Below, piece after piece: positions 901-46,639 of a stretch of DNA of 64,000 bases. The DNA comes from a virus (Duplodnaviria; Caudoviricetes), in IMG/VR virus record IMGVR_UViG_3300023218_000062. The stretch is one strand, 5' to 3'. Position 1 is the stretch's first letter, and the number at the start of each line of letters is the position of its first letter. Below the pieces are notes generated by a model that did no database searches, was not told the DNA's origin, and was given only the letters and a program-made list of their open reading frames with translations. The position numbers were made by a program, and so were the translations under genes.

Positions 901-1101
901 TTATCCCCTCTCTGAAGGAAGGGGCCCTTGCTTTTTTAATAAAGAAGAATTTAACTGTTCTTCCATTTTTTCTATTTCTTCTAAAGATAAACCACAACAT
1001 GTAGCCGCACCTGTTTTTGATATAACTTCTATGAGTCCGCCGTTTTTAAGATGCTCTTTTATATCATCTTCCGTAACTGTATTGCAAACACATGTATACA
1101 T
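901..1101 (-). CDS. Bfd-like (2Fe-2S) ferredoxin domain protein
   Basis: MYTCVCNTVTE...TGAATCCGLS resembles Fer2_BFD (CxC...CxxC); the fourth canonical Cys appears to be Ser. Confidence 0.75.
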   Translation of the reverse strand: MYTCVCNTVTEDDIKEHLKNGGLIEVISKTGAATCCGLSLEEIEKMEEQLNSSLLKKQGPLPSERG

Positions 1102-1121
1102 GTTTATATTAAAAATTAAAT

Positions 1122-1212
1122 TGGAGGAAAGTGGAGGAATCGAACCCCTACCGGCTCCTCACCGATACCCCGGATTTCAAGTCCGGTTGCCAACCATTTA
1201 GCGGCACCTTCC
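1122..1212 (-). tRNA. tRNA-Ser(UGA), non-canonical 8/4 fold
   Basis: Anticodon arm CCGGA-CTTGAAA-TCCGG, long variable arm, T-loop TTCGATT, encoded CCA; 8-bp acceptor GGAAGGTG/CACTTTCC and 4-bp T-stem. Confidence 0.9.
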
Positions 1213-1221
1213 AATATGTAT

Positions 1222-1491
1222 TTAACCATCACGCCTATTCCATTTTGCAGCAACTTCTTCGATAGAATCACCATGTATTTCAGCATCACATCCCCCAGCT
1301 AACTCAGGACATCGTATAAGCCAACAAGGATTATCGGTATCGAATCTCTCATTAGCACCTACATATATTCTACCAACTTCTTCGTGTGAGCGCCAAAATG
1401 TTCCACTGGGATATATTGTATCTCCATCTCTCATATCTGGTACTTTACCACAAAACGGACATGATTTTAAGTTGATATCTTCTTTATTCAT
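1222..1491 (-). CDS. Lar-family restriction alleviation protein
   Basis: N-terminal LKSCPFCG, a second C-x7-C pair and C-terminal AAKWNRR. Confidence 0.7.
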   Translation of the reverse strand: MNKEDINLKSCPFCGKVPDMRDGDTIYPSGTFWRSHEEVGRIYVGANERFDTDNPCWLIRCPELAGGCDAEIHGDSIEEVAAKWNRRDG

Positions 1492-1540
1492 TTAATTTAC
1501 CTGTTGTTTATTTTCATATTCGAAAAATACTGCCCGTTGA

Positions 1541-1660
1541 ATGGTTGGCGTCTCCGTAAATAATTGCGCGCTCTAACTGCTTTAACCGCTCGTCACACCC
1601 ACAAGCTTCGGGTCTTGGCCACACCACTAGCCTCAAGGATTCAGGTTTAGCGCACTCTAC
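1541..1660 (-). ncRNA. candidate structured RNA of unknown class
   Basis: GC-rich intergenic island with closing stem GTGCGCT/AGCGCGC, internal stems GGCTA/TGGCC and ACCC/GGGT, ending ...GACGCCAACCA. Confidence 0.35.
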
Positions 1661-1932
1661 TACAATCCTTTTTTCGAAAAAACTGTATATCATTGCAAGT
1701 TTTATTTTTATAGTATTTCTTTTATTTTTAGTATTTCTTTTATTTTATTTAAACCATCTATCATAGATTCATTCTCAACCTCTTTTTTGATTTCATTTAT
1801 AATATTAGTATCTATATCTTCTCTAAATTTATCTGCTATTGACAAAATGGCATCTCCAAAAGACTCTTTCATTGAAATTTGCCTTTATCTAAATATATGA
1901 TATCACCTTAATATGTGAATGTCAATATTATT

Positions 1933-2009
1933 TGGGGTGTGGGACCGGGGTCGAACCGGCAACTGCTGGAGCCACAATCCAGTGCTTTACCTGTTAAGCT
2001 ACCCACACC
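1933..2009 (-). tRNA. tRNA-His(GUG)
   Basis: Anticodon arm CTGGA-TTGTGGC-TCCAG; G-1:C73 pair; encoded CCA. Confidence 0.95.
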
Positions 2010-2068
2010 ATCATTTATACGCTATAACGTATATTTTCATTTTATACGCTATAACGTATATTTAAAAC

Positions 2069-2144
2069 TGGCAGGTGTGCAAGGATTTGAACCCTGACCA
2101 AGAAATTTGGAGTTTCCTATGCTGCCATATTACACCACACACCT
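2069..2144 (-). tRNA. tRNA-Trp(CCA)
   Basis: Acceptor AGGTGTG/CACACCT, loop CTCCAAA, T-loop TTCAAAT, G73, CCA; D-stem has U11-A24. Confidence 0.95.
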
Positions 2145-2154
2145 ACAATTAATA

Positions 2155-2230
2155 TTCTTGGAAAGTTGAAAAGCTGTTTAGTTGAGTAACCGTCAATTGT
2201 CATAGAAGGATGCTTTTCTATGGCCAAGAA
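2155..2230 (-). ncRNA. structured RNA motif, copy A
   Basis: Terminal stem TTCTTGG/CCAAGAA, conserved GGCCATAG...AAGCATCCTTCTAT and inner pairing GAAAAGC/GCTTTTC; related to 3465-3559 and 2355-2510. Confidence 0.6.
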
Positions 2231-2239
2231 ATTTTAAAA

Positions 2240-2316
2240 TGGTTGCGAGGGCGGGACTTGAACCCGCACATAGAAGGTTATGAGCCTCTCAATCTACCAG
2301 TTGATATTACCTCGCG
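2240..2316 (-). tRNA. tRNA-Met(CAU), initiator-like C1:A72
   Basis: CGCGAGG/CCTCGCA acceptor with C1-A72 mismatch, loop CTCATAA, CCA; only two of the three initiator G-C pairs in the anticodon stem. Confidence 0.9.
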
Positions 2317-2354
2317 TCCGTATAACTATTTATCATTAAATTAAAAAACAGGTA

Positions 2355-2510
2355 ATTTAAACGGAATTTAAAAAGCTTTTTAAATTCCGTTGCTCTACCA
2401 ATTGAGCTACCAGCGAACCAAAATTCATTATTCATAAACTCTTTGGTTCGCTGGGCAGGACTCGAACCTGCAACCCACGGTTGGCATATTATTTTTTATG
2501 GCCGGTAATT
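2355..2510 (-). ncRNA. structured RNA motif, copy B, containing a circularly permuted tRNA domain (2387-2480)
   Basis: Minus-strand order: CCGT-GGGTT-GCAGG TTCGAGT CCTGC-CCAGCGA-A-CCA, a 27-nt spacer, then TCGCTGG-TA-GCTC AATTGGTA GAGC-A-ACGG; the flanks resemble motif copies A and C. Confidence 0.75.
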
Positions 2511-2512
2511 TT

Positions 2513-2520
2513 TATTTATC
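2513..2520 (-). promoter_or_regulatory. T4-like late promoter (GATAAATA) immediately upstream of RNA copy B
   Basis: Same ATAAATA core found 10-45 bp upstream of most structural genes in the window. Confidence 0.45.
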
Positions 2521-2629
2521 TTATCTTATTATGATTCTTTCATGTTGTCAAGTATTTTCTGTTTCTTTCTTGGTAAAATATTTCTTTATTATTGGATTCT
2601 TATCAACAATGTCTTCCATATGAAGCTTC

Positions 2630-2869
2630 CTATTTTGTGATATGTTTTACTGCTCACATCACTGCTTCTTCAATTTTGGTTTTAGCTAGTGATAATTCTC
2701 TAGAGCTACCAACCATATTAATAAGATTATGGAACTCTAAACCGGCATCTTTAATACCCTTCATGAGTTGTTTTTCTTCATCAGAAAGAACTCTGTATTC
2801 ATGACGCATAATATTATTAGTGGTTCTTTCATCTTGCGTAGAATCAATTATTTCATTATCTTTAAACAT
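2630..2869 (-). pseudogene. Acb2/Tad1-family nucleotide-sponge-like gene with in-frame UGA at the conserved Trp
   Basis: SD GAGGA and ATG at 2869; ...RELSLAKTKIEEAVM-[TGA 2654-2656]-AVKHITK-TAG; family motif EEAxMW recalled from Tad1 and T4 Vs.4/Acb2. Confidence 0.7.
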
Positions 2870-2895
2870 TATCTTATCCTCTTGGTTGTAAATGT

Positions 2896-2983
2896 TGGCG
2901 GAAGGGGAGGGGGTCGAACCCTCACCGCTATTACTAACGGGACACCTTTCCAAGGTGCTTGATACACCAGTTTCCGCCCTTCC
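2896..2983 (-). tRNA. tRNA-Ser(GGA)
   Basis: Anticodon arm GCACC-TTGGAAA-GGTGT, long variable arm, G73, CCA; compact D-arm with TGGT loop. Confidence 0.9.
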
Positions 2984-3187
2984 TTTATTAACTCATTCAA
3001 TATCAGCATTTGTAATATTTTTTAATTCCGGTACAGCATATTCACATTCATCTTTTAATGCTACTATTGTAGCAGCATCGATGTTGTCTTGGCATAGTCT
3101 ACAGTGAATGGCAGCGATACTTGCTTTCAATTTTTTATTTTCTTTAACAGAATCTGACATGTTTATTCCTATAGAGAATTTATATGT

Positions 3188-3216
3188 ATAATATAATATT
3201 TACGTTGGTTTGTCAA
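3188..3216 (-). promoter_or_regulatory. sigma70-type promoter
   Basis: TTGACA-17 bp-TATTAT. Confidence 0.55.
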
Positions 3217-3222
3217 GTTATT

Positions 3223-3295
3223 TGGCGCTCCGAGTAGGACTCAAACCTACAAGGCGGGACTTAGGAGGTTCTGCTGCGCTTCTGTCGCCCGGAGC
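3223..3295 (-). tRNA. degenerate tRNA-Arg(CCU), probable pseudo-tRNA
   Basis: Acceptor GCTCCGG/TCGGAGC and CCA intact, loop CTCCTAA; two mismatches in the anticodon stem, T-loop TTTGAGT, poor D-arm. Confidence 0.6.
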
Positions 3296-3464
3296 CAAAA
3301 TTTTTATTAAAGGTAAGTTTATTGATAGTGACACGGCTACTAATAGTTTTATTGTATACTTTCAGTAGAGGTTTCCTATATAGTTACTTTTTCCTTTCGC
3401 CATTTCATCCTATGTTCTTACACTAACACTTGAAAAAGAGTTAGTCAAGCGTTTTTAAATAATA

Positions 3465-3559
3465 TGACCGGGAATTTGGAAAGCTTTAAGGGCCGATTGA
3501 TAATCGGCTTCTTCAGCAGCTAATAGCTAATAGAAGGATGCTTATCCTATGGCCGGTCA
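3465..3559 (-). ncRNA. structured RNA motif, copy C
   Basis: Terminal stem TGACCGG/CCGGTCA, GGCCATAGGATAAGCATCCTTCTAT, insert hairpin GCCGATT/AATCGGC and GCTTTCC partner. Confidence 0.6.
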
Positions 3560-3577
3560 GTTTTTTTACTTTTAAAT

Positions 3578-3654
3578 TGGTGGGTCTGGAGAATTTCGAA
3601 TCCACGACCCTCTGCTTGCAAGGCAGATGCTCTCCCGGACTGAGCTATACCCCC
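3578..3654 (-). tRNA. chimeric/degenerate tRNA-Ala(UGC)
   Basis: Good D and anticodon arms (TCTGC-CTTGCAA-GCAGA), but the acceptor GGGGGTA/CAGACCC has 3 mismatches and no G3:U70. Confidence 0.65.
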
Positions 3655-4076
3655 GAAAATTTTATAAACCACACTAATACAAAAATTATCGTATAGTGTG
3701 TTAAGTGATGAACAGCCTGATCAAATCCTAATGCCATCCAAAATCTTCTATCTTCTATCGTAAAACGCCCCAACATATGTGGTGACGCTTTTATTCTATC
3801 CATTGTAAAATGAATTATTGTATCAAACCAAAACAATATTAATATTAGCCCTAATCCTTTAAATGAAAGAACCCCACTTAATTGTAATACCAACACTGAT
3901 ATAACTATTGTAAAAAATCCATGATCGCTTGCATGCTTTAACAACGGTACAAACCATCCAATTTCGTTGAATTTATCCATTCCATCTTTTCTATATGATT
4001 GAACCACATAGTCAACTATAAAATGCTTAAACTGAAAAATTAATAGTAGAACAAATATTAATATTATTGTATTCAT
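3645..4076 (-). CDS. DUF3307-family membrane protein
   Basis: KHFIVDYVVQ, LLKHASDHG, IIHFTMDRIK and LGFDQAVHH motifs; hydrophobic segments. Confidence 0.75.
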   Translation of the reverse strand: MNTIILIFVLLLIFQFKHFIVDYVVQSYRKDGMDKFNEIGWFVPLLKHASDHGFFTIVISVLVLQLSGVLSFKGLGLILILFWFDTIIHFTMDRIKASPHMLGRFTIEDRRFWMALGFDQAVHHLTHYTIIFVLVWFIKFSGV

Positions 4077-4381
4077 AACACCTCCTTACTTTTTCTGATG
4101 GACTTCTTCATGGTAACATTTTCATATTTCATTATAGTTTGAGATTCTTCAATAACATGAACCTGTTTGCTTATACCAAAAACCTCTGACATATCGACAA
4201 TAGATGTTGTATCCCACATCGTAATATTATCAATATTATCAATATTATCAATAGTACTTGTATCCCACATCGTAATATTATCAATATTATCAATATTATC
4301 AATATTATCAATATTATCAATATTATCAATAGTACTTATGTCAAATACAGGTTCTTCTACTATTTCGTCAGACTTATTCAT
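4073..4381 (-). CDS. small protein with IDN tandem repeat and DUF285-like WDTS..DMS.VF remnant
   Basis: ORF track; repeats visible in protein and DNA. Confidence 0.5.
   Translation of the reverse strand: MNKSDEIVEEPVFDISTIDNIDNIDNIDNIDNIDNITMWDTSTIDNIDNIDNITMWDTTSIVDMSEVFGISKQVHVIEESQTIMKYENVTMKKSIRKSKEVL
4205..4338. repeat. nested VNTR: 9-bp (ATATTATCA)n inside a duplicated larger unit
   Basis: Two copies of TATCCCACATCGTAAT-(ATTATCAAT)n-AGTACTT with different numbers of 9-mers. Confidence 0.9.
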
Positions 4382-4726
4382 TTTTTATTTTTAAATCACA
4401 TCTTTATAGGCTGGCAGAGGAACTAGTTTACCATTTTCGATAGTAAATTTCAAGTCTATATATTCTCCGTCTTCATCTGAAGGACCAGTGCGATATGCTC
4501 TGTCACTGAACGCAGTATATACAATATTATCGCCTTCTCTATCCTTTCCTCTCACTATAAATACGGGTGGGATAGAATGATTGGTAATAGTGACACCAAT
4601 TTTTAATTCTTGTGGTAGACCATGTTGTATATCATACTTCTAATTTTCTGTTAAGATTTTTGCGTCAACTTCATTTTATAACCCTCGTAACTCTATTAAC
4701 TTTCTCAGAGTATTTATCCCAATATG

Positions 4727-5065
4727 TTATTTGTTTTTTTTCCATGGTGGAGTAGTCTCCTTAATCGTAATAGTTATCCCGCTCCAACATCCACAACCCA
4801 AAAATTGATCTATATCGACTTCAGATATTTCATAGTATGTGTCTTCATCATCTTCATTGTGAATGCGAATTGTAGCTGGAACTTGATGTGACATCATATA
4901 TCCCTCTTCATTCCCTTCACGAGTACTACCAATTTCTTTATCTACGTGTTCTAAATATTCTATAAATGTTCTAAGTGTTGGGTGTTTTTGTATCATCATA
5001 TCAACTCCTGAATAGTAATTTGTTGACGCCTTTTTAATTTCCTTATTTCTTAAAATCTCGTCCAT
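4727..5065 (-). CDS. hypothetical protein
   Basis: ORF track; start uncertain because the frame stays open upstream. Confidence 0.45.
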   Translation of the reverse strand: MDEILRNKEIKKASTNYYSGVDMMIQKHPTLRTFIEYLEHVDKEIGSTREGNEEGYMMSHQVPATIRIHNEDDEDTYYEISEVDIDQFLGCGCWSGITITIKETTPPWKKNK

Positions 5066-5108
5066 TATGGAGGGTATCTCTATTATTGCTAATCTAGCGA
5101 CATTAATT

Positions 5109-5181
5109 TGGTTTGTACGACTGGATTTGAGCCAGTGACCCGTCCGAGGCGGGGGACTCTTCCAGACTGAGTTACGTACAG
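5109..5181 (-). tRNA. pseudo-tRNA (Pro/Arg-like, variable region deleted)
   Basis: Acceptor CTGTACG/CGTACAA, D-arm ACTC/GAGT, T-loop CTCAAAT, loop CCTCGGA, 1-nt variable region, CCA. Confidence 0.55.
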
Positions 5182-5188
5182 TTTAATT

Positions 5189-5263
5189 TGGTACCCCCGG
5201 AGAGATTCGAACTCCCACGCTTATGGTTCGTAGCCATATGCTCTTCCATTGAGCTACGGGGGT
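5189..5263 (-). tRNA. tRNA-Arg(ACG)
   Basis: Canonical cloverleaf, TATGG-CTACGAA-CCATA, CCA. Confidence 0.95.
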
Positions 5264-5270
5264 AAATTTC

Positions 5271-5693
5271 TTAATATATTTTTCTCTTTTCTTTTCCACC
5301 ATATAACCCTTTTACACGTTTAGTATCTCTGAGGTATGCGTTGCAATATTTAATTATCATGCGTGCATGTTCTTCATCTACCATGCAACTATTCCAATGA
5401 CCTCTTCGATAATCAACCCCAAATACATATTTAATAGCAACCCATATTCTTTTAAAAAAACCTAGATATGGGGACAATTGCAAATTAAATGTAAGTTCTG
5501 GCAATGGTAGAAATTTATCAGGATCATCCATGTCTTCTTTAGTAAAGAGTGCTATACCGTCATCATAATATGACACCATCATTGCATGTTCTGGATTATA
5601 ACATTCACAAGGTACATAAAAACTTTCAAAAAAATCTCGTGGGGTAGTATACAGTTTAACATTGTCTACATTTTCATTCTTTTCACCATTCAT
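5271..5693 (-). CDS. hypothetical phage protein
   Basis: ORF track; FFKRIWVAIKYVFG...GHWNS motif resembles small phage hypotheticals. Confidence 0.65.
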   Translation of the reverse strand: MNGEKNENVDNVKLYTTPRDFFESFYVPCECYNPEHAMMVSYYDDGIALFTKEDMDDPDKFLPLPELTFNLQLSPYLGFFKRIWVAIKYVFGVDYRRGHWNSCMVDEEHARMIIKYCNAYLRDTKRVKGLYGGKEKRKIY

Positions 5694-5699
5694 AATCGT

Positions 5700-5996
5700 T
5701 TATATTTTTATTTTGGCATTGAGTTCTTTATTTATATTTAATATGTGAGATAATACTCCAGAATTATATGCTGAAATTCTATTTTCACCATGTTTACTAC
5801 AACGGTAAACGCTTCCACTAAATCCATAAAATAATAAGTCATCTCCATCTTTCTCTATTTTAGAAATGCCGCTGTTCACTCTCCAACTATCATTCCCTAG
5901 AAATCCACCAGACCAGCTACTAAATATAAAATATTCTGTCCCCTTCTTAGATGGTACTTATATTATAACCCAACCATCTGGTATATGCTCATTCAT
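5700..5996 (-). pseudogene. conserved-looking phage hypothetical interrupted by TAA at codon 13
   Basis: MNEHIPDGWVII*VPSKK...SWSGGFLGNDSWRVNSGISKIEKDG...GFSGSVYRC; a 99-codon frame with one internal stop at 5958-5960. Confidence 0.7.
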
Positions 5997-5998
5997 TT

Positions 5999-6199
5999 TT
6001 ATTTTTCATCTCTATTGGCGGCGGTAAGTCCTATAATATAACCAATAACAATTGGCCCCCCAAATGATAATAACATCCCCCATTGGGGTATATCAACTCC
6101 TATTCCGACTGCGAATAATATTATTGATAATATTAGACCTATTATGGCCCCTCCAGCTATTCCTGCTACAATTAAAAATCCTGAAAAAAGTGGTTTCAT
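5999..6199 (-). CDS. small two-TM membrane protein
   Basis: ORF track; two hydrophobic helices. Confidence 0.6.
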   Translation of the reverse strand: MKPLFSGFLIVAGIAGGAIIGLILSIILFAVGIGVDIPQWGMLLSFGGPIVIGYIIGLTAANRDEK

Positions 6200-6463
6200 A
6201 ATTTTATCCTTTTCCGTATCCTTAGTTTGTAACCAAGCTCTTTTTTATTGAGCTATGGGGGTATGATTTTTATCCTAAAATTCTTCGTGGAATTCCATAG
6301 GCTTTCGCTATAGCTTTATTAAACTTTTCGATTAAATCGGTATAGTCTTTAGAACCTCTAGTATCATTTATTGTTCTAATATATTTATATTTCATTATCA
6401 TATCTTTATTTGATTCAGAACGATAGCGTCAACGCCATTTGCTCTTCGCCCCTGTCGTTAAAT

Positions 6464-6538
6464 TAGTGGGAACTTCAGGTTTCGCGCCTGCCCCCTGAGG
6501 CTTCAACTCAGCGCTTCCACTAGGTTAGCGTAGTTCCC
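6464..6538 (-). tRNA. tRNA-Phe(GAA), atypical
   Basis: Acceptor GGGAACT/AGTTCCC, CTGAG-TTGAAGC-CTCAG; T-loop CGCGAAA; 3' end ACTA instead of ACCA. Confidence 0.7.
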
Positions 6539-6602
6539 CCATTATTTATTATTTATTATTTTTCATAATAGGCGTTTTTCCACAAGTTTGTATCTAGTTT
6601 TT

Positions 6603-7073
6603 TCATTTTGAAGATTTCAGTAGTTCTTCCACATCATTTATTAGTCTTTTATAATCTTTAAGTTCTACCATAAGAGAATAGATGATGAGTCGTGCAATAT
6701 CATTATCTAATTCTTCACTTAATCTTTCACCTTCATTTAGAAGGAAAGAATGGTCAAAGAAATTATATCCTTTAGCTACATATTCATCAAATAACTCTCC
6801 TATACTTTTTTCAGTTTTTATATTTTCTCCATCCTGTATTTTAGTTAAAGGTATAGAAATTAATTGGGTTGGAACGAATTCTTGTGGGAACATGGTGTTC
6901 TCGTTTTTAGGCCATCCTGTCAACAAAATACTTTCAATTGTGCCATTATTACTTCTAATTATTCGAAGGCTCAAATTATCAAAATTTTTTGAATTATATT
7001 CATTATTAAATAATTTTACTAAATCTTCTATGAATTCTGTCGTAGCTGTAATTTTATATTTCATGAGTGTCAA
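6603..7073 (-). CDS. hypothetical protein
   Basis: ORF track; co-directional with neighbours, AAGGA upstream. Confidence 0.6.
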   Translation of the reverse strand: MTLMKYKITATTEFIEDLVKLFNNEYNSKNFDNLSLRIIRSNNGTIESILLTGWPKNENTMFPQEFVPTQLISIPLTKIQDGENIKTEKSIGELFDEYVAKGYNFFDHSFLLNEGERLSEELDNDIARLIIYSLMVELKDYKRLINDVEELLKSSK

Positions 7074-7142
7074 TCCTTATTTTTATGTTTTGCGGACAAA
7101 TATATCATGTTAGGTATATAATGTCAAACTTCATAATATTCT

Positions 7143-7343
7143 TTATTTGTATAATAATATATAAACAAAAAATGGCAAAAACATTATTGCTCCAATCACC
7201 TGAAAAATTGTTGCAATTGTATATACATTTGTATCGTTGACTCTTAGAATGTATTTTAATAATTGAAAATCTATACCCGGAATCCATACCATGATATATC
7301 CAATTAACATTACGAAAAGCATTATTCCGTCTATCGTATTCAT
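7143..7343 (-). CDS. small membrane protein
   Basis: ORF track; hydrophobic. Confidence 0.5.
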   Translation of the reverse strand: MNTIDGIMLFVMLIGYIMVWIPGIDFQLLKYILRVNDTNVYTIATIFQVIGAIMFLPFFVYILLYK

Positions 7344-7463
7344 TTTTATATCAAATCCTATATATTCAATTCTATAGGTTTGGATTTAGATATTTGTCTT
7401 CCTGTATATCTCCATTTGTAGTGTATAGTTAAAAACTCTATTATATCATTTTCTTTAATTTAT

Positions 7464-7539
7464 TGGCGGTACAGACCGGGTACGATCCGGCATCATCTTC
7501 CGTGACAGGGAAGTATTTTACCAATTAAACTACTGCACC
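7464..7539 (-). tRNA. tRNA-Asp(GUC)
   Basis: CTTCC-CTGTCAC-GGAAG, G73, CCA; T-loop ATCGTAC. Confidence 0.95.
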
Positions 7540-7620
7540 GTACTTATTCCTTCTCTTGTCACACCAACTTCATATATTATTAGTATAATATTCATTTAAA
7601 TGTTCTTTAGCCCATTTTAA

Positions 7621-7692
7621 TTGTGGAGCTACGGGGTAACGATCCCCGCCATCGTGATTGCAAATCACAAGTCTGTCCCATACAGCAGCCCC
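7621..7692 (-). tRNA. tRNA-Ala(UGC), non-canonical D-arm
   Basis: Acceptor GGGGCTG/TAGCTCC with G3:U70 and A73; TGTGA-TTTGCAA-TCACG; T-loop ATCGTTA; 3' ACAA. Confidence 0.75.
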
Positions 7693-7749
7693 ATTACTAT
7701 ATGACAATAATACCTCAACAGTTCAATATTGCCAAGGTGTTTTTAAAAA

Positions 7750-7780
7750 TGGTGTCACTGACACGATTCGAACGCGCATC
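7750..7780 (-). pseudogene. orphan tRNA 3' fragment (T-arm plus acceptor strand)
   Basis: GCGCG-TTCGAAT-CGTGT-CAGTGAC-A-CCA with no matching 5' strand found nearby. Confidence 0.5.
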
Positions 7781-7911
7781 CCGAATATCGTCACCATCCC
7801 ATCTTACATCGTATTTTTCATTCTACAAGAAGAATTCCATCCACGATTCCGCCCATTTATTTTTTATAGTGCTGATGGGGTCTCGTTCCCTCTTGCACTG
7901 TTCTTAAGCAT

Positions 7912-7941
7912 AAAAAAGGCAGCTAAAAAAGCTGTCTTTTT
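7912..7941. terminator. bidirectional intrinsic terminator
   Basis: A-run, GGCAGCT/AGCTGTC hairpin, T-run. Confidence 0.7.
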
Positions 7942-8458
7942 GTCTTTTTATTTTGTAGAATATCTTTTACATTCTACTCCAACCTTCAGACAAAAAGGCA
8001 CTATTAGGCGCTTTCGCATCAAAAAAGCGTTAATTAATATCTCTATAACCTTCGGACGTAATTTCTCTTACGCCTTCACTAATTTTAGTTTTTCATTAAA
8101 TAAAGTCATTTTTATTTCTTTTTTATCCTTGTTATATTTATTTATGTTCATTTTCATTAAATCTGTGTGGGTTTACTTATTTATGATAACACCCGGTTTT
8201 ATAATAGAACCAATTGGTCCATCACCTGTTGGATCTATACTAATCATCCTAACCAGCCCTCTCGGGAGATACCGCCCCATCCTTCATTAGTGGCTCCAAG
8301 ACCTGATCCGTGTTCAATTCCAGCCACGCCGGTGTCATCATTAATGAACTTATGCCCGTCAATAATTATATCTGTACTCATAATTTATCTCCTTTAGTTT
8401 CTTATATCCTATCACGTTTATTTATGGTTGTCAATACTTTTTTACAACTTTTTGAATT

Positions 8459-8534
8459 TGGAGCGGCCAATCGGGCACGATCCGATAACCTGATGCTTGG
8501 AAGGCATCTGCTCTACCAATTGAGCTATAGCCGC
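8459..8534 (-). tRNA. tRNA-Gly(UCC)
   Basis: GATGC-CTTCCAA-GCATC, U73, CCA; T-loop ATCGTGC. Confidence 0.95.
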
Positions 8535-8558
8535 ATTTAAATTTAAATCTATTTATAT

Positions 8559-9227: not shown

Positions 9228-9805
9228 GTTTTATTCATATGGGGAAAATTAGAATAATTAAGTTCAGGAAAGCTAGAATGTAAAAAGTTTAATAATTTAG
9301 ATGGTTTATCATCGTTTATATGATAGCATAAAAAATTATTTTTATCATTAAAAAATTTAAGTATATTATAATGGTGAGAAAACCATTCCATCTTCCAATA
9401 ATGTTTAACTTCATCATATGTTTCAAAATTTAATACTTTTCGATATCTTTCCATTAAATCGGAATGATTGACTCTGCTGGGTATCCAATCCTCTACATGT
9501 CTGGTATTTAATATATAATAAGAATCTGGATACCATTTATAAATGTAATCAAAATGTTTATACGGTTCAATAATTTCTTTTTCTGAAACAAATATCATGT
9601 CAGAAAATGCTATGATATTACTATAATTCTTGAATGGTTTTTCATTTAATTTTTTATTTTCAATGAAGAATTTGGCTATATTTCCACAATCCCAATGTAC
9701 CGACGATATGTCATTCTTTAGAAAGAATTCGTGAAAACTTGTGGTTCCACATTTGTTAAATCCGACTAAAAATATTTTACGATTTTTGGAATCTTTAACC
9801 AACAT
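9224..9805 (-). CDS. sulfotransferase (P-loop type)
   Basis: KIFLVGFNKCGTTSFHEFF PAPS-binding loop and YYILNTR; start moved to the ATG at 9805. Confidence 0.8.
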   Translation of the reverse strand: MLVKDSKNRKIFLVGFNKCGTTSFHEFFLKNDISSVHWDCGNIAKFFIENKKLNEKPFKNYSNIIAFSDMIFVSEKEIIEPYKHFDYIYKWYPDSYYILNTRHVEDWIPSRVNHSDLMERYRKVLNFETYDEVKHYWKMEWFSHHYNILKFFNDKNNFLCYHINDDKPSKLLNFLHSSFPELNYSNFPHMNKT

Positions 9806-10070
9806 ATTCTGCAAATTTTTCTGCAGACGACTTTGCATCATCTAAATTTTTAATGGTTTTTGTACCATGTTTATTATATGGTGTACTATCGCTACCGTAT
9901 TCAGGATCAAATATTTTATCACCTATTTTAAAACCTGCGACTGCACGATGACTCCATCCATACCATATTCCCTTATCTTCGTCAAGACCAGTAGGTCCTT
10001 TTCCTCTTTTAGTAATATTATATTTTTTTACAATGTCTTTAGTAGACTCAAATAGTTGTTGTAATTTCAT
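9795..10070 (-). CDS. hypothetical protein, possible virion internal protein
   Basis: Begins MKLQQLFE; WYGWSHRA motif. Confidence 0.6.
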   Translation of the reverse strand: MKLQQLFESTKDIVKKYNITKRGKGPTGLDEDKGIWYGWSHRAVAGFKIGDKIFDPEYGSDSTPYNKHGTKTIKNLDDAKSSAEKFAEYVG

Positions 10071-42827: not shown

Positions 42828-44507
42828 ATGCCTGTAACGTGTAAGATATGTAACAGAGAATTTGCTACACAAATAACAAATACACATCTTAAAACCCATG
42901 GTGTCACAACAGAACAGTACAAAGAGCGTTTTGGGGTAGATTCTCTTTCGTCTAAAGAATATATAAAACAACGTTCGCTTAAATGTCGAGGAACCAATAA
43001 CCCTATGTATGGCAAGAATCATTCAGCCATTTCTAAGACACAAATGTCTAATAATCGAAGAAATAAACCCGGCAGAACTGGTCCTATTTCTGATATCGGG
43101 AAACAAAATATAATGCTTGGCGTGGAGAAGAGAGAAGAAAAATATTCCAGCGGAGAGCTTCAGAGGACGAGTCATAATTTTACCGAAAATGACCGAAAAA
43201 AAATATCAAATTCTGTGAAATCTTATGCCAAAGATCATCCAAATGAGTTATCTGCACGAGGGTCAAAAGCATACAAAACCGCGTTAAAAAATGATAATTG
43301 GATGGCGCCCATGACCCGACTTAAAGCTGATGACCCGGTTAAATATTATTATTTGCGGAAGCAGTCATCAGAATCAATCAAAAAGGCCAATGATCTGAGA
43401 TCAAAAAGGCTTAATGAGAAGATACTTAATAATATATCAAAATCTAATTTTAGTGTATTAGGGGATATACTATCTGAAAAAACTGGACTTCATACATATA
43501 ATTTGATGTGCAATGTATGTAAAACCAAGTTTTCATACACTCGCCAATATTTTACTGATTCCAAGTTTAATCCTGAGTGCTGCCCAGCTTGTTTTCCTAG
43601 AGATCGTAGTACTAGTATTGCAGAGGATGAAATTGCAGAATATATAAGCGCATTTCCTGTAAAAGTAGTACGAAACGACCGAACAATATTAGATGGGGGT
43701 CGTGAAATTGATATGTATTTGCCAAATATAAATCTGGCGATTGAATATAATGGATTATATTGGCACTCCCAAAAAACTCTTGAAAGTGCTAATCGAGATA
43801 AACACGCGGATTATTATAAGTATTTGGAATTACACGCCAAGGGGGTACAACTGATTTCTATCTATGAAGATGAATGGATAAAATCAAAGAATATAGTTAA
43901 AAGTATTCTTAGATATAAGCTAGGCATGGTAAGTAATAAAATACATGCAAGAAAATGTGCTGTACGAGAAATAACCACAGATGCTGCGCGGGCGTTTTTA
44001 AATCAAAACCACATTCAAGGATATAATAAATCTAAAGTTAAATTAGGATTATATTTTAACGGCAATATTGTGGCAGTTATGACCTTCTCCAAAGGAAACC
44101 TATCTAGAAAGTCATCTGCGTGGGAAATAGATCGGTTTGCATCATTATTAGACACATCCGTAATAGGTGGAGCCAACAAATTGTGGAATCATTTTCAGAA
44201 AACGTATGATCCTACTGTGGTTGTTTCATATGCCGACAATAGATGGTCAAATGGGAAGTTGTATGATATATTGGGGTTTTCTTTTCAAAAAAACACCGTT
44301 CCGAATTATTGGTATTTTAAACCGAATGAATTAAGGAGGGTACACCGTTTTACGTTACGCAAAAACTCTTCTGATTATAAAAATTTAACCGAATATGAAA
44401 ATAGATTATTACAAGGATATCTACGGATATGGGACTGCGGAAGCTCTAAGTGGATATGGGAAAAATCACATCCTGAAAAACCCCCTGTTAAAGGGGGTTT
44501 GTTTTAG
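42828..44507 (+). mobile_element. free-standing homing-endonuclease-like gene (Zn finger, NUMOD3-like, PD-(D/E)xK/DUF559-like and GNAT-like C-terminal domain)
   Basis: CKIC...H...H, NNPMYGKNHS, EIDMYLP...AIEYNGLYWHS, FLNQNHIQG, VSYADNRWS and IWDCG; antisense to the tail operon. Confidence 0.75.
44478..44500 (-). terminator. intrinsic terminator of the sheath gene
   Basis: AAACCCCC-TGTTAAA-GGGGGTTT, inside the 3' end of the convergent endonuclease gene. Confidence 0.7.
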
Positions 44508-46639
44508 GCAGTTGGCACACTTTCGATGCTACCAACCTCTCCCACATCAGCACTCTGCAACACAACTCTTATTGGTACAAAAATAAATTCTACCGCTAGA
44601 GTAGGCTTAAGAGCAACGTCAATCCATAGTTCTTTTCGTTGTACTCTATCTGGAGTATTATTTGTAGAGTCACTTAGAGTAGCAAAGTCTTGTAAAGCTC
44701 TGGTATTCAATAATCCGTTTAGAAAATTGTCCACGACAGCTTTTGCCTGATTTCTAGTTATCTGGTCATTAGGTTCAAATAAGAATGGGAAGACTGCACG
44801 TCTAACTTCTCTCTTAACAAATCTCAGCATACGCTCGACATTTATCGATTCTCTTGAAGATACAGCAGGCGCAGCGGTTTTTTGTCCCATAACCAGAATC
44901 CCTCTTCCATTAATTCTCGCGATAGGATTAATGTTTTTCGGAAATTCGTATAGTGAATCACGTTTTCCGCGATCTAAGTTTTCTACTACGAATGTAGTTG
45001 GAGTTCCTAAAACACCAGAAACATATCCCGTATCTGTCAAATGCGGGCATGTTCCTCTTGAAGACCCTGCAGGGGCAAACCACAGTTCACTTTCTCGGTC
45101 ATTAAATGCGATTACTCGTAAAGCCGTAGCTGCAGAGGTAGTCAAAATATCTTTACCATCTATGTTAGATGATATTCCATGGCCATACCAGTATGCCAAA
45201 CCAACATCTGTATTACGTGATGATACCGCCCAGTTAATTATGCTATTTAAGCCAGAAGGTGGTTTGTCAAATGGAGTTTCCCCTATTACAAATACTTCGT
45301 CTAGCATATCATCTGCTAGTCGTACTAGTTCATCAACTACTTCTGGATATCCCGGACATGCTAACAGATTAAAGTTAAATGCATCAGGATTTCTAAGACC
45401 TAAATCTGGATCATTAACGGCCGCTTGTAGGCGTTCTACGATTTCTGCCTTCCGCTCTTCATTAGTTGTACCTAACTGCGTGAATTTTCTAAATTCCCAT
45501 GTTAGCTCATATTCATCTGCTGCAGTTTCTACAATTGAACAAACTTGTTCAGAAGTATATTCTGTTGTATCATCTATTGCAGCAAACAATCCTTCAAATT
45601 GCCCAGTCGCCGGTTGGCTAAACCCATCCGGAAACATGGGGAGAGGGTTGGGACCCTGACCCGAAACGGGGTCTGCAAATGAAGAAAACAGATTTAGTTC
45701 ACTAAACAATCCTTCTACGCCAGATATATCTTCAGTAATTTCTACAGATGATGTTACTCCCTCAAGTGCAGATGTTATTCTAAGTCTTCCAGCATTAAAG
45801 CCAATAGTTGCGTTTCCACTTAGCTCTAAATTGATATTATCAATCAATTCACCAAATGTTTGTATTTGAGATCCCACTAATGATATTGCTTGTGGTGTTC
45901 CATTAATAATGAAATTAGCAGCGAATACACTATTATCATTTGACAGCCCTGTTACGTCAGATCGTGTAAGAAATCCGCCTGATGTATCAAATATAACTTC
46001 TTGATAACCAGCAACGTCTCCGGTGTGATCATTTAAAAACGCATCTCGAAAAAGATTATTATTTCCAGTTCGTCCCTTAGAAGAGAAAGAATAGCAATCA
46101 AATACTTCTTGTAGTGATTCTTCCAGCAAAAGTTTTACGTCAGCACCATTTATAGTAGTTTCTATATTTTGTCCATTAAGATCATTTTCTGCATTAAACT
46201 CATCAAGATAATCTGCGAAAAGTTCATCAAAAAAATTGCAGGATTCTGAAATCTTTTTATTAAAAAGGGTTCTTATTGCTTCAATGTTATCATTTGTATT
46301 AACATTTGCTCTAACTACTATGGCTCTGTTCCCGATTTCAAGAAATTTATTTAAGGCGTCCAAGCCATATTCATTTCTAGCATCTCCGTGGAATGGTTCT
46401 CCTTCGGCACTTTCTAAATATCTAGGAATACCATAAAGACGTAAACTTTCACTTATAGATGTTACTTCTCTATATACACCATGTTCATACGTTCCCAATG
46501 CTGGTGTTACGCCGTCGGGTTGAGTTTTTTGCTCTTCAGTTGCTATGAAAATAACGGGAAGTGCTGTTGCTCTACCCGGTGCGAAAAAACTCTCGTCTAC
46601 TATAGTTACACTAGTGCCCGGACTAATTAAATCTGCCAT
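44504..46639 (-). CDS. tail sheath protein (T4 gp18-like)
   Basis: LISPGTSVTIVDES, LWFAPAG..RG, INP and INVERML; EFIFVPI end. Confidence 0.95.
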   Translation of the reverse strand: MADLISPGTSVTIVDESFFAPGRATALPVIFIATEEQKTQPDGVTPALGTYEHGVYREVTSISESLRLYGIPRYLESAEGEPFHGDARNEYGLDALNKFLEIGNRAIVVRANVNTNDNIEAIRTLFNKKISESCNFFDELFADYLDEFNAENDLNGQNIETTINGADVKLLLEESLQEVFDCYSFSSKGRTGNNNLFRDAFLNDHTGDVAGYQEVIFDTSGGFLTRSDVTGLSNDNSVFAANFIINGTPQAISLVGSQIQTFGELIDNINLELSGNATIGFNAGRLRITSALEGVTSSVEITEDISGVEGLFSELNLFSSFADPVSGQGPNPLPMFPDGFSQPATGQFEGLFAAIDDTTEYTSEQVCSIVETAADEYELTWEFRKFTQLGTTNEERKAEIVERLQAAVNDPDLGLRNPDAFNFNLLACPGYPEVVDELVRLADDMLDEVFVIGETPFDKPPSGLNSIINWAVSSRNTDVGLAYWYGHGISSNIDGKDILTTSAATALRVIAFNDRESELWFAPAGSSRGTCPHLTDTGYVSGVLGTPTTFVVENLDRGKRDSLYEFPKNINPIARINGRGILVMGQKTAAPAVSSRESINVERMLRFVKREVRRAVFPFLFEPNDQITRNQAKAVVDNFLNGLLNTRALQDFATLSDSTNNTPDRVQRKELWIDVALKPTLAVEFIFVPIRVVLQSADVGEVGSIESVPTA

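Follow-up and report, generated by a model that had tools for sequence, protein, structure and literature searches.

A stretch of viral DNA (Duplodnaviria; Caudoviricetes; IMG/VR record IMGVR_UViG_3300023218_000062) carries three small elements, A, B and C, embedded among tRNA genes, and the question raised by this locus is what these elements are. We refer to the whole 64,000-nucleotide (nt) stretch as the window; it is included in an AT-rich, jumbo-phage-like contig of freshwater metagenome origin. An initial annotation, made from the sequence alone, described the elements as a three-copy family of structured RNAs and did not recognise the family. Our analysis indicates that A and C, together with a further copy D outside the window, are fairly likely to be genes for small stable non-coding RNAs of a large unlisted family, the Y-RNA-like partners of a protein that appears to join a Ro60-like part to a TerD domain. 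The three copies in the window lie where the annotation had placed them, on the minus strand. We used two covariance models, R1, which was built from A, C and D only and comprises 14 base pairs (bp), and R2, a family model. The extended contig L136 is the same contig continued ~20 kb leftward of the window and was found by exact-protein look-up. The four copies are as follows.

2152..2233, minus strand: copy A, a scaffold RNA with a ~76-nt core at 2155-2230, matched by models R1 and R2
2355..2515, minus strand: copy B, a permuted tRNA-like RNA flanked by scaffold-end relics, defined by alignment to Rfam YrlA (RF02553)
3462..3562, minus strand: copy C, a scaffold RNA with its core at 3465-3559, matched by model R2
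L136:17697-17778, ~6.8 kb past the window's left edge, on the strand of the partner gene: copy D, 75.0 bits with R2

Copy A consists of a closing stem (UUCUUGG/CCAAGAA), an internal loop (CCAUA/AACUUU), an inner helix (GAAAAGC/GCUUUUC), AUCCUUCUA and an unstructured module of ~30 nt, and it scored 72.6 bits with R2 (E 3e-15) and 94.9 bits with R1. The corresponding parts of copy C (57.5 bits with R2, E 2e-11) are UGACCGG/CCGGUCA, CCAUA/AAAUUC, GGA(U)AAGC/GCUUUCC, AUCCUUCUA and a module of two hairpins. RNAfold minimum-energy structures of both elements showed a 7-bp terminal stem with a GG/CC end, a 5/6-nt asymmetric internal loop and a 7-bp inner helix, exactly reproducing the folds that had been proposed. 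The folding z-scores were -2.3 for A and -4.9 for C, and the minimum-energy fold of C was identical to its centroid fold (-32.9 kcal/mol). Read directly, four of the seven terminal-stem pairs and one inner-helix pair were altered on both sides between A and C with pairing kept, so that the terminal stems do differ and yet pair, as the annotation had observed. A degenerate 3' motif, AGCTYTNYAAMTTNCC, was confined to A, B and C within the 64 kb, where 0.32 chance matches were expected, and none of 100 shuffles reached four matches. A and C showed no match in Rfam 15 at E<=10, and a tRNA-like domain (T arm, closed acceptor, D arm) was absent from both.

Copy D is located 84 nt upstream of an open reading frame (ORF) of 691 amino acids (aa) on the same strand and has its own promoter (TTGACA-17-TAGGAT). 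Its inner helix, AAAGAGC/GCUCUUU, contains new compensatory changes, and no Rfam 15 match was found for D at E<=10. A, C and D share all features of the scaffold, namely the GG/CC closing pairs, C(U/C)AU, a 7-bp helix with a C-G end, UCCUUCUA and RMUUU. The 691-aa ORF, which we call the partner gene, lies 7-9 kb past the window's left edge on the same strand as A, B and C, with D in its leader.

The covariance-model search that the annotation had suggested was run with A, C and D as its seed. The phage set comprised 80 IMG/VR loci, selected on the sole criterion that they encode a homologue of the 691-aa protein, with 6 kb of flank per side. R1 gave 176 matches (E<=1), and 176 of 176 were on the gene's strand. 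The best 150 of these were distributed over 70 of the 80 loci, none of them more than 1.9 kb from the gene; the median distance was 172 nt for upstream matches and 308 nt for downstream ones, and single loci carried up to six copies in tandem. The bacterial set, which R2 had not seen, was drawn from genome assemblies of bacteria and archaea and again comprised 80 loci with a gene for a homologue of the protein. Here R2 gave 127 matches (E<=0.01), every one of them on the strand of the gene; 77 of the 80 loci had at least one, and the remaining three were missing the upstream flank. In both sets together, strand-locked adjacency was observed directly in 147 of 160 loci, although the proteins are only 35-50% identical. 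These results demonstrate that the UCCUUCUA-scaffold RNAs are a widespread structured family, and the family is new in being absent from Rfam 15 and from the searchable literature, which is incomplete. DNA-level patterns gave no such result in viral contigs: a loose pattern, GGCCATAN{3,6}AAGCATCC, returned 119 loci, all of them chance matches, and a stricter one with CCTTCTAT returned zero loci.

The covariation score was 0.856 in the phage set and 0.948 in the bacterial set, compared with ~0.17 for shuffles (0.166 in the phage set) and 0.10-0.22 for slid partners (~0.12 in the phage set). Twelve of the 14 pairs were altered on both sides in the phage-set alignment. The claim that the inner helix covaries, originally based on three copies, now has behind it the both-side changes between A and C and massive covariation across more than 250 homologues. 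The structure, its covariation and the family membership of A, C and D are direct observations. Moreover, G-U and U-G pairs (78) outnumbered A-C and C-A mismatches (29), a sense-strand-specific pattern that indicates an RNA of one strand rather than a DNA element. This excess bears on the proposal that the elements are ribozymes that cleave themselves, or else repeats at the DNA level (recombination sites or miniature mobile elements, for example). They do occur in multiple copies, their terminal inverted sequences resemble element ends, and phage tRNA regions are a place where ribozymes are common. However, the terminal stems covary and are not conserved, unlike transposon ends; the elements always point the same way as the gene; no sign of target-site duplications with polymorphic presence or absence was seen; and Rfam returned no ribozyme match at E<=10. 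We regard this proposal as extremely improbable, and neither the ribozyme nor the tRNA-processing alternative of the initial annotation gained support.

The scaffold of the RNAs is made of two helices and has three single-stranded patches that are invariant in sequence and fixed in their spacing. Among the 130 and 124 distinct sequences of the phage and bacterial sets, UCCUUCU was invariant in the former and 95-100% conserved in the latter, and the loop-adjacent GG/CC pairs were invariant or nearly so. The loop strands are C(U/C)AU opposite RMUUU, and the helix from the loop to the tract is always 7 bp long, followed by single-stranded UUCCUUCUA. The apical module ranges from 13 to 94 nt and is a permuted tRNA in ~8 of 130 members, which retain UCCUUCUA. 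The family therefore fits the earlier description of a conserved RNA scaffold carrying exchangeable modules. The tRNA-bearing members that were examined scored 35-51 bits with the YrlA model, all below its 69-bit cut-off, so that Rfam annotation never reports them.

The RNAs are also found in cultured phages, where XacN1 has three copies (upstream of ORF396), Xoo-sp13 two and Rhodococcus phage Weasels2 three (downstream of gp266), in unannotated gaps beside the protein homologue. The bacterial carriers are strains of Brevibacillus, Paenibacillus, Niallia, Heyndrickxia and Priestia. In Weasels2, XacN1, Xoo-sp13 and RcXuper, the homologue gene is near tRNA clusters and a nucleotidyltransferase gene (possibly CCA-adding), and the Weasels2 locus also has an RtcB RNA ligase, an echo of the bacterial rsr-yrlA-rtcB neighbourhood. 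A related phage contig with the protein and RNA copies contains a permuted tmRNA (L158:13097-13410, plus strand; Rfam RF04321, 106 bits).

Expression was assessed with RNA-seq contigs from a close relative of Paenibacillus thiaminolyticus, which were aligned to the homologous locus of that species; the runs covered no more than a small part of a 601-nt stretch of it. The contigs piled up at L304:2813-2950 (plus strand), a span that takes in the first RNA copy and the greater part of the second (model matches 2822-2895 and 2905-2976). At the RNA copies the contigs were 60-88 nt long, and some extended into Illumina adapters. Summed depth was ~2.5-6.4e5 on the RNA copies, against ~50-300 on the gene next to them and no more than 54 upstream, which places the RNA ~1000-fold above the mRNA, although these are per-contig k-mer depths, a poor measure of expression that carries no end positions, and come from a distant bacterial homologue rather than the window phage. 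We take this as support for abundant short RNAs in that homologue, short of proof for the window phage.

The positions of A and C suggest how they might be released. Three tRNA genes adjoin them.

2069..2144, minus strand: tRNA-Trp, found by ARAGORN and Rfam, ~10 nt downstream of A
2243..2316, minus strand: tRNA with a CAU anticodon, 43.5 bits with the Rfam tRNA model, missed by ARAGORN, immediately upstream of A
3581..3654, minus strand: tRNA with a GCA anticodon, 42 bits with the Rfam tRNA model, missed by ARAGORN, immediately upstream of C

Copy A sits between two tRNAs at a distance of ~9-10 nt from each, and C begins ~18 nt past the tRNA at 3581-3654. A and C would be transcribed as part of the tRNA operon, and the enzymes that process tRNA ends probably free them. 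The 5' processing site of A is probably supplied by the tRNA at 2243..2316, and a cut by RNase P at the 5' end of tRNA-Trp would free its 3' end. The same arrangement can be read in another way, with the elements acting in cis, either on the protein gene, as its autoregulatory leaders or attenuators, or on the tRNA operon, as processing or punctuation signals. D lies within the 5' leader of the gene, numerous homologues are directly upstream of it, and A and C are sandwiched by tRNAs. We nevertheless consider a cis-acting role quite unlikely: loci carry as many as six tandem copies, 62 of the 150 best phage-set matches are downstream of the gene, other copies are dispersed 9-10 kb away, whole tRNA mimics occur among the variable apical modules, and the short RNA-seq pieces far exceed the mRNA.

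We then turn to the protein that the RNAs accompany. The 691-aa protein falls in a PHROG of unknown function, and its family comprises 2877 clusters at 50% identity (E<=0.001), annotated at best as 'TerD family' or 'hypothetical'. Its C-terminal domain is TerD, with Swiss-Prot TerZ/TerD matches at E 3e-8 to 1e-5. The AlphaFold2 (AF2) model had a pLDDT of 93.8 and gave the following structural matches.

Whole model, residues 462-630: TerD (3ibz), Z 16.8, 152 residues aligned
Whole model: Deinococcus radiodurans Rsr (2nvo), Z 11.2, 313 residues aligned; the sole broad match, with the next unrelated row at Z 6.0
N-terminal 455 residues against 48,161 chains: phiLo Ro60 (9l5y), rank 1, Z 8.6, 233 residues aligned
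N-terminal 455 residues against 48,161 chains: Rsr (2nvo), rank 3, Z 8.4, 277 residues aligned
N-terminal 455 residues: generic HEAT proteins, similar Z, ~100 residues aligned

The N-terminal domain is accordingly predicted to be a helical ring most similar to Ro60, and homology of the 691-aa protein to Ro60 is probable, short of proven. A Foldseek search of Swiss-Prot was dominated by TerD matches and did not list Ro60, and no sequence-level link of the 691-aa protein to solved structures was detected. The nearest annotated relatives are the bacterial MXAN_6230/SCO0854 RING proteins (NCBIfam NF041916), which are homologous over residues 291-660 and beyond (E 4e-106) and share the fold over the whole length (TM 0.88). 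These proteins differ in adding a C-terminal Prok-RING domain that is absent from the 691-aa protein, and the match of the 691-aa protein to NCBIfam RING_SCO0854 was under the family cut-off. We found no paper on a TROVE/TerD fusion or on SCO0854, in a literature that is incompletely searchable.

Besides the limits of the depth data, several points weigh against pairing these RNAs with a Ro60-like protein. A, B and C lie inside the tRNA cluster, 9-10.5 kb upstream of the partner gene on the same strand, and this placement is atypical, as the RNA-gene distance in relatives has a median of 172-308 nt and is mostly below 0.5 kb. The similarity to Ro60 is one of predicted structure only: the long-coverage matches of the N-terminal domain are phiLo Ro60 and Rsr alone, at modest Z values in a range that is ambiguous for helical repeats, and hhalign gave a probability of 0.1% between the 691-aa protein and a phage TROVE protein. 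Pfam searches of the 691-aa protein and ten homologues (E<=1) found no match, TROVE (PF05731) included, except TerD in one homologue, and TerD takes the place of the vWA domain of Ro60. The RNAs do not contain the Ro-binding motif GNCGAAN0-1G / GGUCCGA. Standard pairs made up 93.1% of pair cells in the phage set and 94.1% in the bacterial set, and these percentages are inflated, being counted in model-fitted alignments. Finally, the sequencing runs that contain the stretch are DNA metagenomes, chiefly of lake water, with no RNA run among them.

Some of these points would also suit a real, stable RNA family that acts independently of the neighbouring protein, its linkage to the gene reflecting co-regulation only. 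One possibility is that the pyrimidine tract UUCCUUCUA pairs with purine-rich targets of the Shine-Dalgarno kind; another is that the RNAs occupy a host nuclease or RNA-binding protein, as decoys or sponges. Three observations favour such a reading: the tract, invariant and single-stranded, can be read directly as the complement of UAGAAGGAA-type sequences; A, B and C lie 9-10 kb away from the gene, amid tRNAs and anti-defence genes; and the RNA is far more abundant than the mRNA. Against this stand the strand-locked adjacency in 147 of 160 loci, far tighter than co-regulation requires, the fixed 7-bp spacing of the conserved loops, which resembles a protein footprint, and the best structural match of the protein, which is an RNA-binding ring. 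We consider independent action unlikely. The inference of a Y-RNA-like protein-binding stem, made in the initial annotation, is strengthened by RNAs that flank a single protein family whose predicted ring domain is most like Ro60.

Copy B departs from this pattern. It opens with 5' CCGGCCAUA, followed by an anticodon-like stem (CCGU/ACGG), a variable loop and a canonical T arm (GCAGG-UUCGAGU-CCUGC). The 7-bp acceptor (UCGCUGG/CCAGCGA) has its 3' strand first, with A73 and an encoded CCA, and is extended and hairpin-capped before the 5' strand. A canonical D arm (GCUC-AAUUGGUA-GAGC), ACGG and a 3' palindromic hairpin including GCUUUUUAAAUUCC complete the element. B folds with a z-score of -6.3 and agrees with C in nine of nine bases of 5' CCGGCCAUA and 14 of 16 of the 3' motif, and both end in GCUUUUUAAAUUCC at the 3' side; its 3' motif has one mismatch to AGCTYTNYAAMTTNCC. 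B keeps GG-CCAUA and AAAUU-CC and is without AUCCUUCUA, the UCCUUCUA core and the C-G pair. Its closing stem is weak, as had been remarked, and in the minimum-energy fold the 3' scaffold strand pairs locally with the complementary segment beside it, in a perfect hairpin of 12 bp. B was not detected by R1 or R2 (none at E<=10 with R2). B is a degenerate or diverged member of the family, since it lacks UCCUUCUA, has a weak stem and is missed by both models. We read it as the descendant of a tRNA-bearing member that has partly departed from the scaffold. One further feature lies directly upstream.

2523..2551, minus strand: sigma-70-like promoter TTGACA-17 nt-TAAGAT, 10 of 12 consensus positions, a consensus match only

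B is probably a free-standing tRNA mimic under its own promoter, or it may bind to the protein in a different way. Permuted tRNA genes occur, for example, in Cyanidioschyzon merolae. B resembles these in having the 3' tRNA half before the 5' half, matching acceptor strands and an encoded CCA. It differs from them in having neither an anticodon loop nor a bulge-helix-bulge for circularisation, and it is for this reason unable to mature into a decoding tRNA. The design of B fits YrlA better than permuted tRNA genes.

The resemblance to YrlA raises the question of whether the elements are ordinary YrlA/YrlB Y RNAs, in the service of a canonical Ro60/Rsr (TROVE plus vWA) whose gene lies in another part of the phage genome or in the host. 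B aligns with Rfam YrlA (RF02553) end to end (model positions 1-114; 50.4 bits, E 3e-9), known loci combine one tRNA-like RNA with shorter partners (PMC4201824), and the related jumbo phage RsoM2USA (MG752970.1), a Ralstonia phage and distant relative by family B DNA polymerase (PolB), has a canonical 491-aa TROVE protein at ~44269-44955 on the minus strand. However, B does not reach the YrlA gathering score of 69 bits, and the only full-length Rfam match, the finding that would have spoken against a new family, is this sub-threshold alignment of B, while A and C have none. YrlA RNAs are characterised by GNCGAAN0-1G near the 5' end (Chen 2014, PMC4201824); this motif is not present near the 5' ends of the copies, where A and C carry GGCCAUAG, B carries GGCCAUAA and D carries GGCUAUAA. 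No TROVE match was found in ten window ORFs of 434-866 aa, a scan with the 976- and 3122-aa ORFs outside it, or within the ~20 kb left flank, and tblastn of the RsoM2USA TROVE protein against the window returned nothing. The family model was silent in ~3.7 kb around the RsoM2USA TROVE gene and follows the TerD-fusion protein instead. Weak YrlA matches in XacN1 and RsoM2USA proved to be juxtaposed halves of neighbouring tRNAs and were rejected as false positives. Ordinary Y RNAs for a canonical Ro60 are a very improbable explanation, and we read the elements as Y-RNA-like, yet outside YrlA by score, by motif and by the absence of a nearby TROVE gene.

The likeness to the bacterial YrlA/YrlB RNAs and Rsr is nonetheless extensive (RF02553; Chen et al. 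2014, PMC4201824). In both systems a locus carries several small RNAs, encoded on the same strand as the ring-protein gene, with paired 5' and 3' ends and a stem broken by a conserved loop; in both, one paralogue has a permuted tRNA-like domain and the others are short and hairpin-type, some with pyrimidine-rich loops. They differ in the conserved motifs, which are C(U/C)AU, UCCUUCUA and RMUUU here and GNCGAAN0-1G there, and in the partner, which has TerD instead of vWA and no Pfam TROVE; moreover, A, B and C are 9-10.5 kb off the gene rather than within ~4 kb of it. Ro60 of Thermus phage phiLo with its Yrl1 and Yrl2 RNAs (PMC12135203; PDB 9L5Y, 9KOP) is likewise a phage ring protein with two adjacent stem-bulge-stem RNAs, and it ranks first among the structural matches to the N-terminal part of the 691-aa protein. 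It differs as a canonical HEAT-ring plus vWA protein whose Yrl RNAs carry the CGAA motif, and it has no detectable sequence similarity to the 691-aa protein. The phiLo Ro60 with Yrl RNAs captures the host PNPase, and an anti-defence role has been proposed (PMC12135203). The gp130 protein of Bas63, a Felix O1-type phage, is Ro60-like by structure only, and its gene also lies beside a tRNA cluster (bioRxiv 10.1101/2024.10.10.617714). It counters the Ppl defence system, and its authors guessed that some 'tRNA genes' may be Y RNAs; no RNA was defined there (same source), a difference from the present family. A tblastn search that started with the 691-aa protein did not extend to Felix O1-type phages. 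Some jumbo phages have been noted to encode ROT/TROVE proteins that have tRNA-like partners (Iyer et al., PMC7824862).

On the reading that A, C and D are Y-RNA-like partners of this protein, the invariant scaffold would be a protein-binding platform or handle, by analogy with the Ro60-binding bulged helix of Y RNAs. The variable apical module, which lacks structure in A, forms two hairpins in C and consists of a permuted tRNA in some relatives, would recruit or mimic different host RNAs or enzymes. These modules may act as those of YrlA/YrlB and Yrn1 do, and each paralogue would receive a different client. The particle would likely manipulate the RNA metabolism of the host or counter a defence system; the Acb2/Tad1-like and Tad6-like genes in the cluster, the Ro60-like protein of Bas63 that counters Ppl, and the phiLo and jumbo-phage precedents are the context that points to such a role. 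A more specific proposal, which we find tentative and rather doubtful, is an RNA-programmed hub, in which one Ro60-like/TerD ring uses interchangeable adapter RNAs (up to six per locus, tRNA mimics included) as a phage counter-defence or RNA-hijacking device. The modules would then steer the ring to different host RNAs or enzymes, and the invariant UUCCUUCUA would be a universal handle, threading into the ring or docking on it. In such a hub, the 3' scaffold strand of B could pair either with its 5' strand or with the neighbouring segment, a possible switch between a protein-bound form and a free tRNA mimic.

Ro60/Y-RNA particles are conserved from bacteria to humans, and their function is still poorly understood. 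To our knowledge, bacterial Y RNAs are known only beside canonical Rsr. The RNAs described here form a distinct family with its own conserved motifs, of which a covariance model recovers hundreds of copies, and they are tightly linked to a protein family that is very large and uncharacterised. None of the tRNA-bearing members examined is picked up by the Rfam YrlA model, because their scores are below its threshold. Xanthomonas phages XacN1 and Xoo-sp13, Rhodococcus phage Weasels2 and strains of Brevibacillus, Paenibacillus and Niallia are tractable carriers, in which a new branch of the Ro60/Y-RNA particle world can be put to the test. If the pairing of RNA and protein is physical, it would give the protein family a class of function, explain unannotated gaps in many phage tRNA clusters and provide a natural modular RNA series for asking what Y-RNA modules do; it may also identify a widespread phage counter-defence device.

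The window itself encodes a tail sheath, PolB, ribonucleotide reductase and the 3122-aa ORF. Judged by PolB, which is 43-45% identical, its nearest cultured relatives are two phages of Xanthomonas, Xoo-sp13 and XacN1, and two of Stenotrophomonas, CM1 and RAS14. A PolB search for close relatives led to one contig, 64% identical, in which R1 and R2 found none of the RNAs. Megablast of the tRNA region against GenBank phages gave no match, and a search for relatives with an adjacent 198-aa ORF found none. The minus-strand tRNA cluster, at 1100-8550, contains eight tRNAs found by ARAGORN and two detected by Rfam alone. A 71-aa ORF at 2654-2869 (minus strand), between tRNA-Ser and the promoter of B, has a Pfam match to Acb2_Tad1_hairpin, and a 91-aa ORF at 9795-10070 (minus strand), a small ORF within the tRNA cluster, has one to Tad6. 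Judged from these Acb2/Tad1-like and Tad6-like sequences, the cluster may double as an anti-defence island.

The other GC-rich minus-strand segments 3218-3300, 1545-1690 and 6415-6545 folded no better than shuffles. A tRNA-like remnant at 3222-3296 (minus strand) has an acceptor-like stem with a GCCA end and a T-arm-like hairpin, and a D arm and an anticodon arm were not recognised in it; it had no Rfam match and likewise folded no better than shuffles (z +0.15). An ORF at 4073-4381 (minus strand) contains a 9-nt unit, ATTGATAAT, repeated in two blocks at ~4225-4335, and the encoded peptide is a repetitive IDNIDN.

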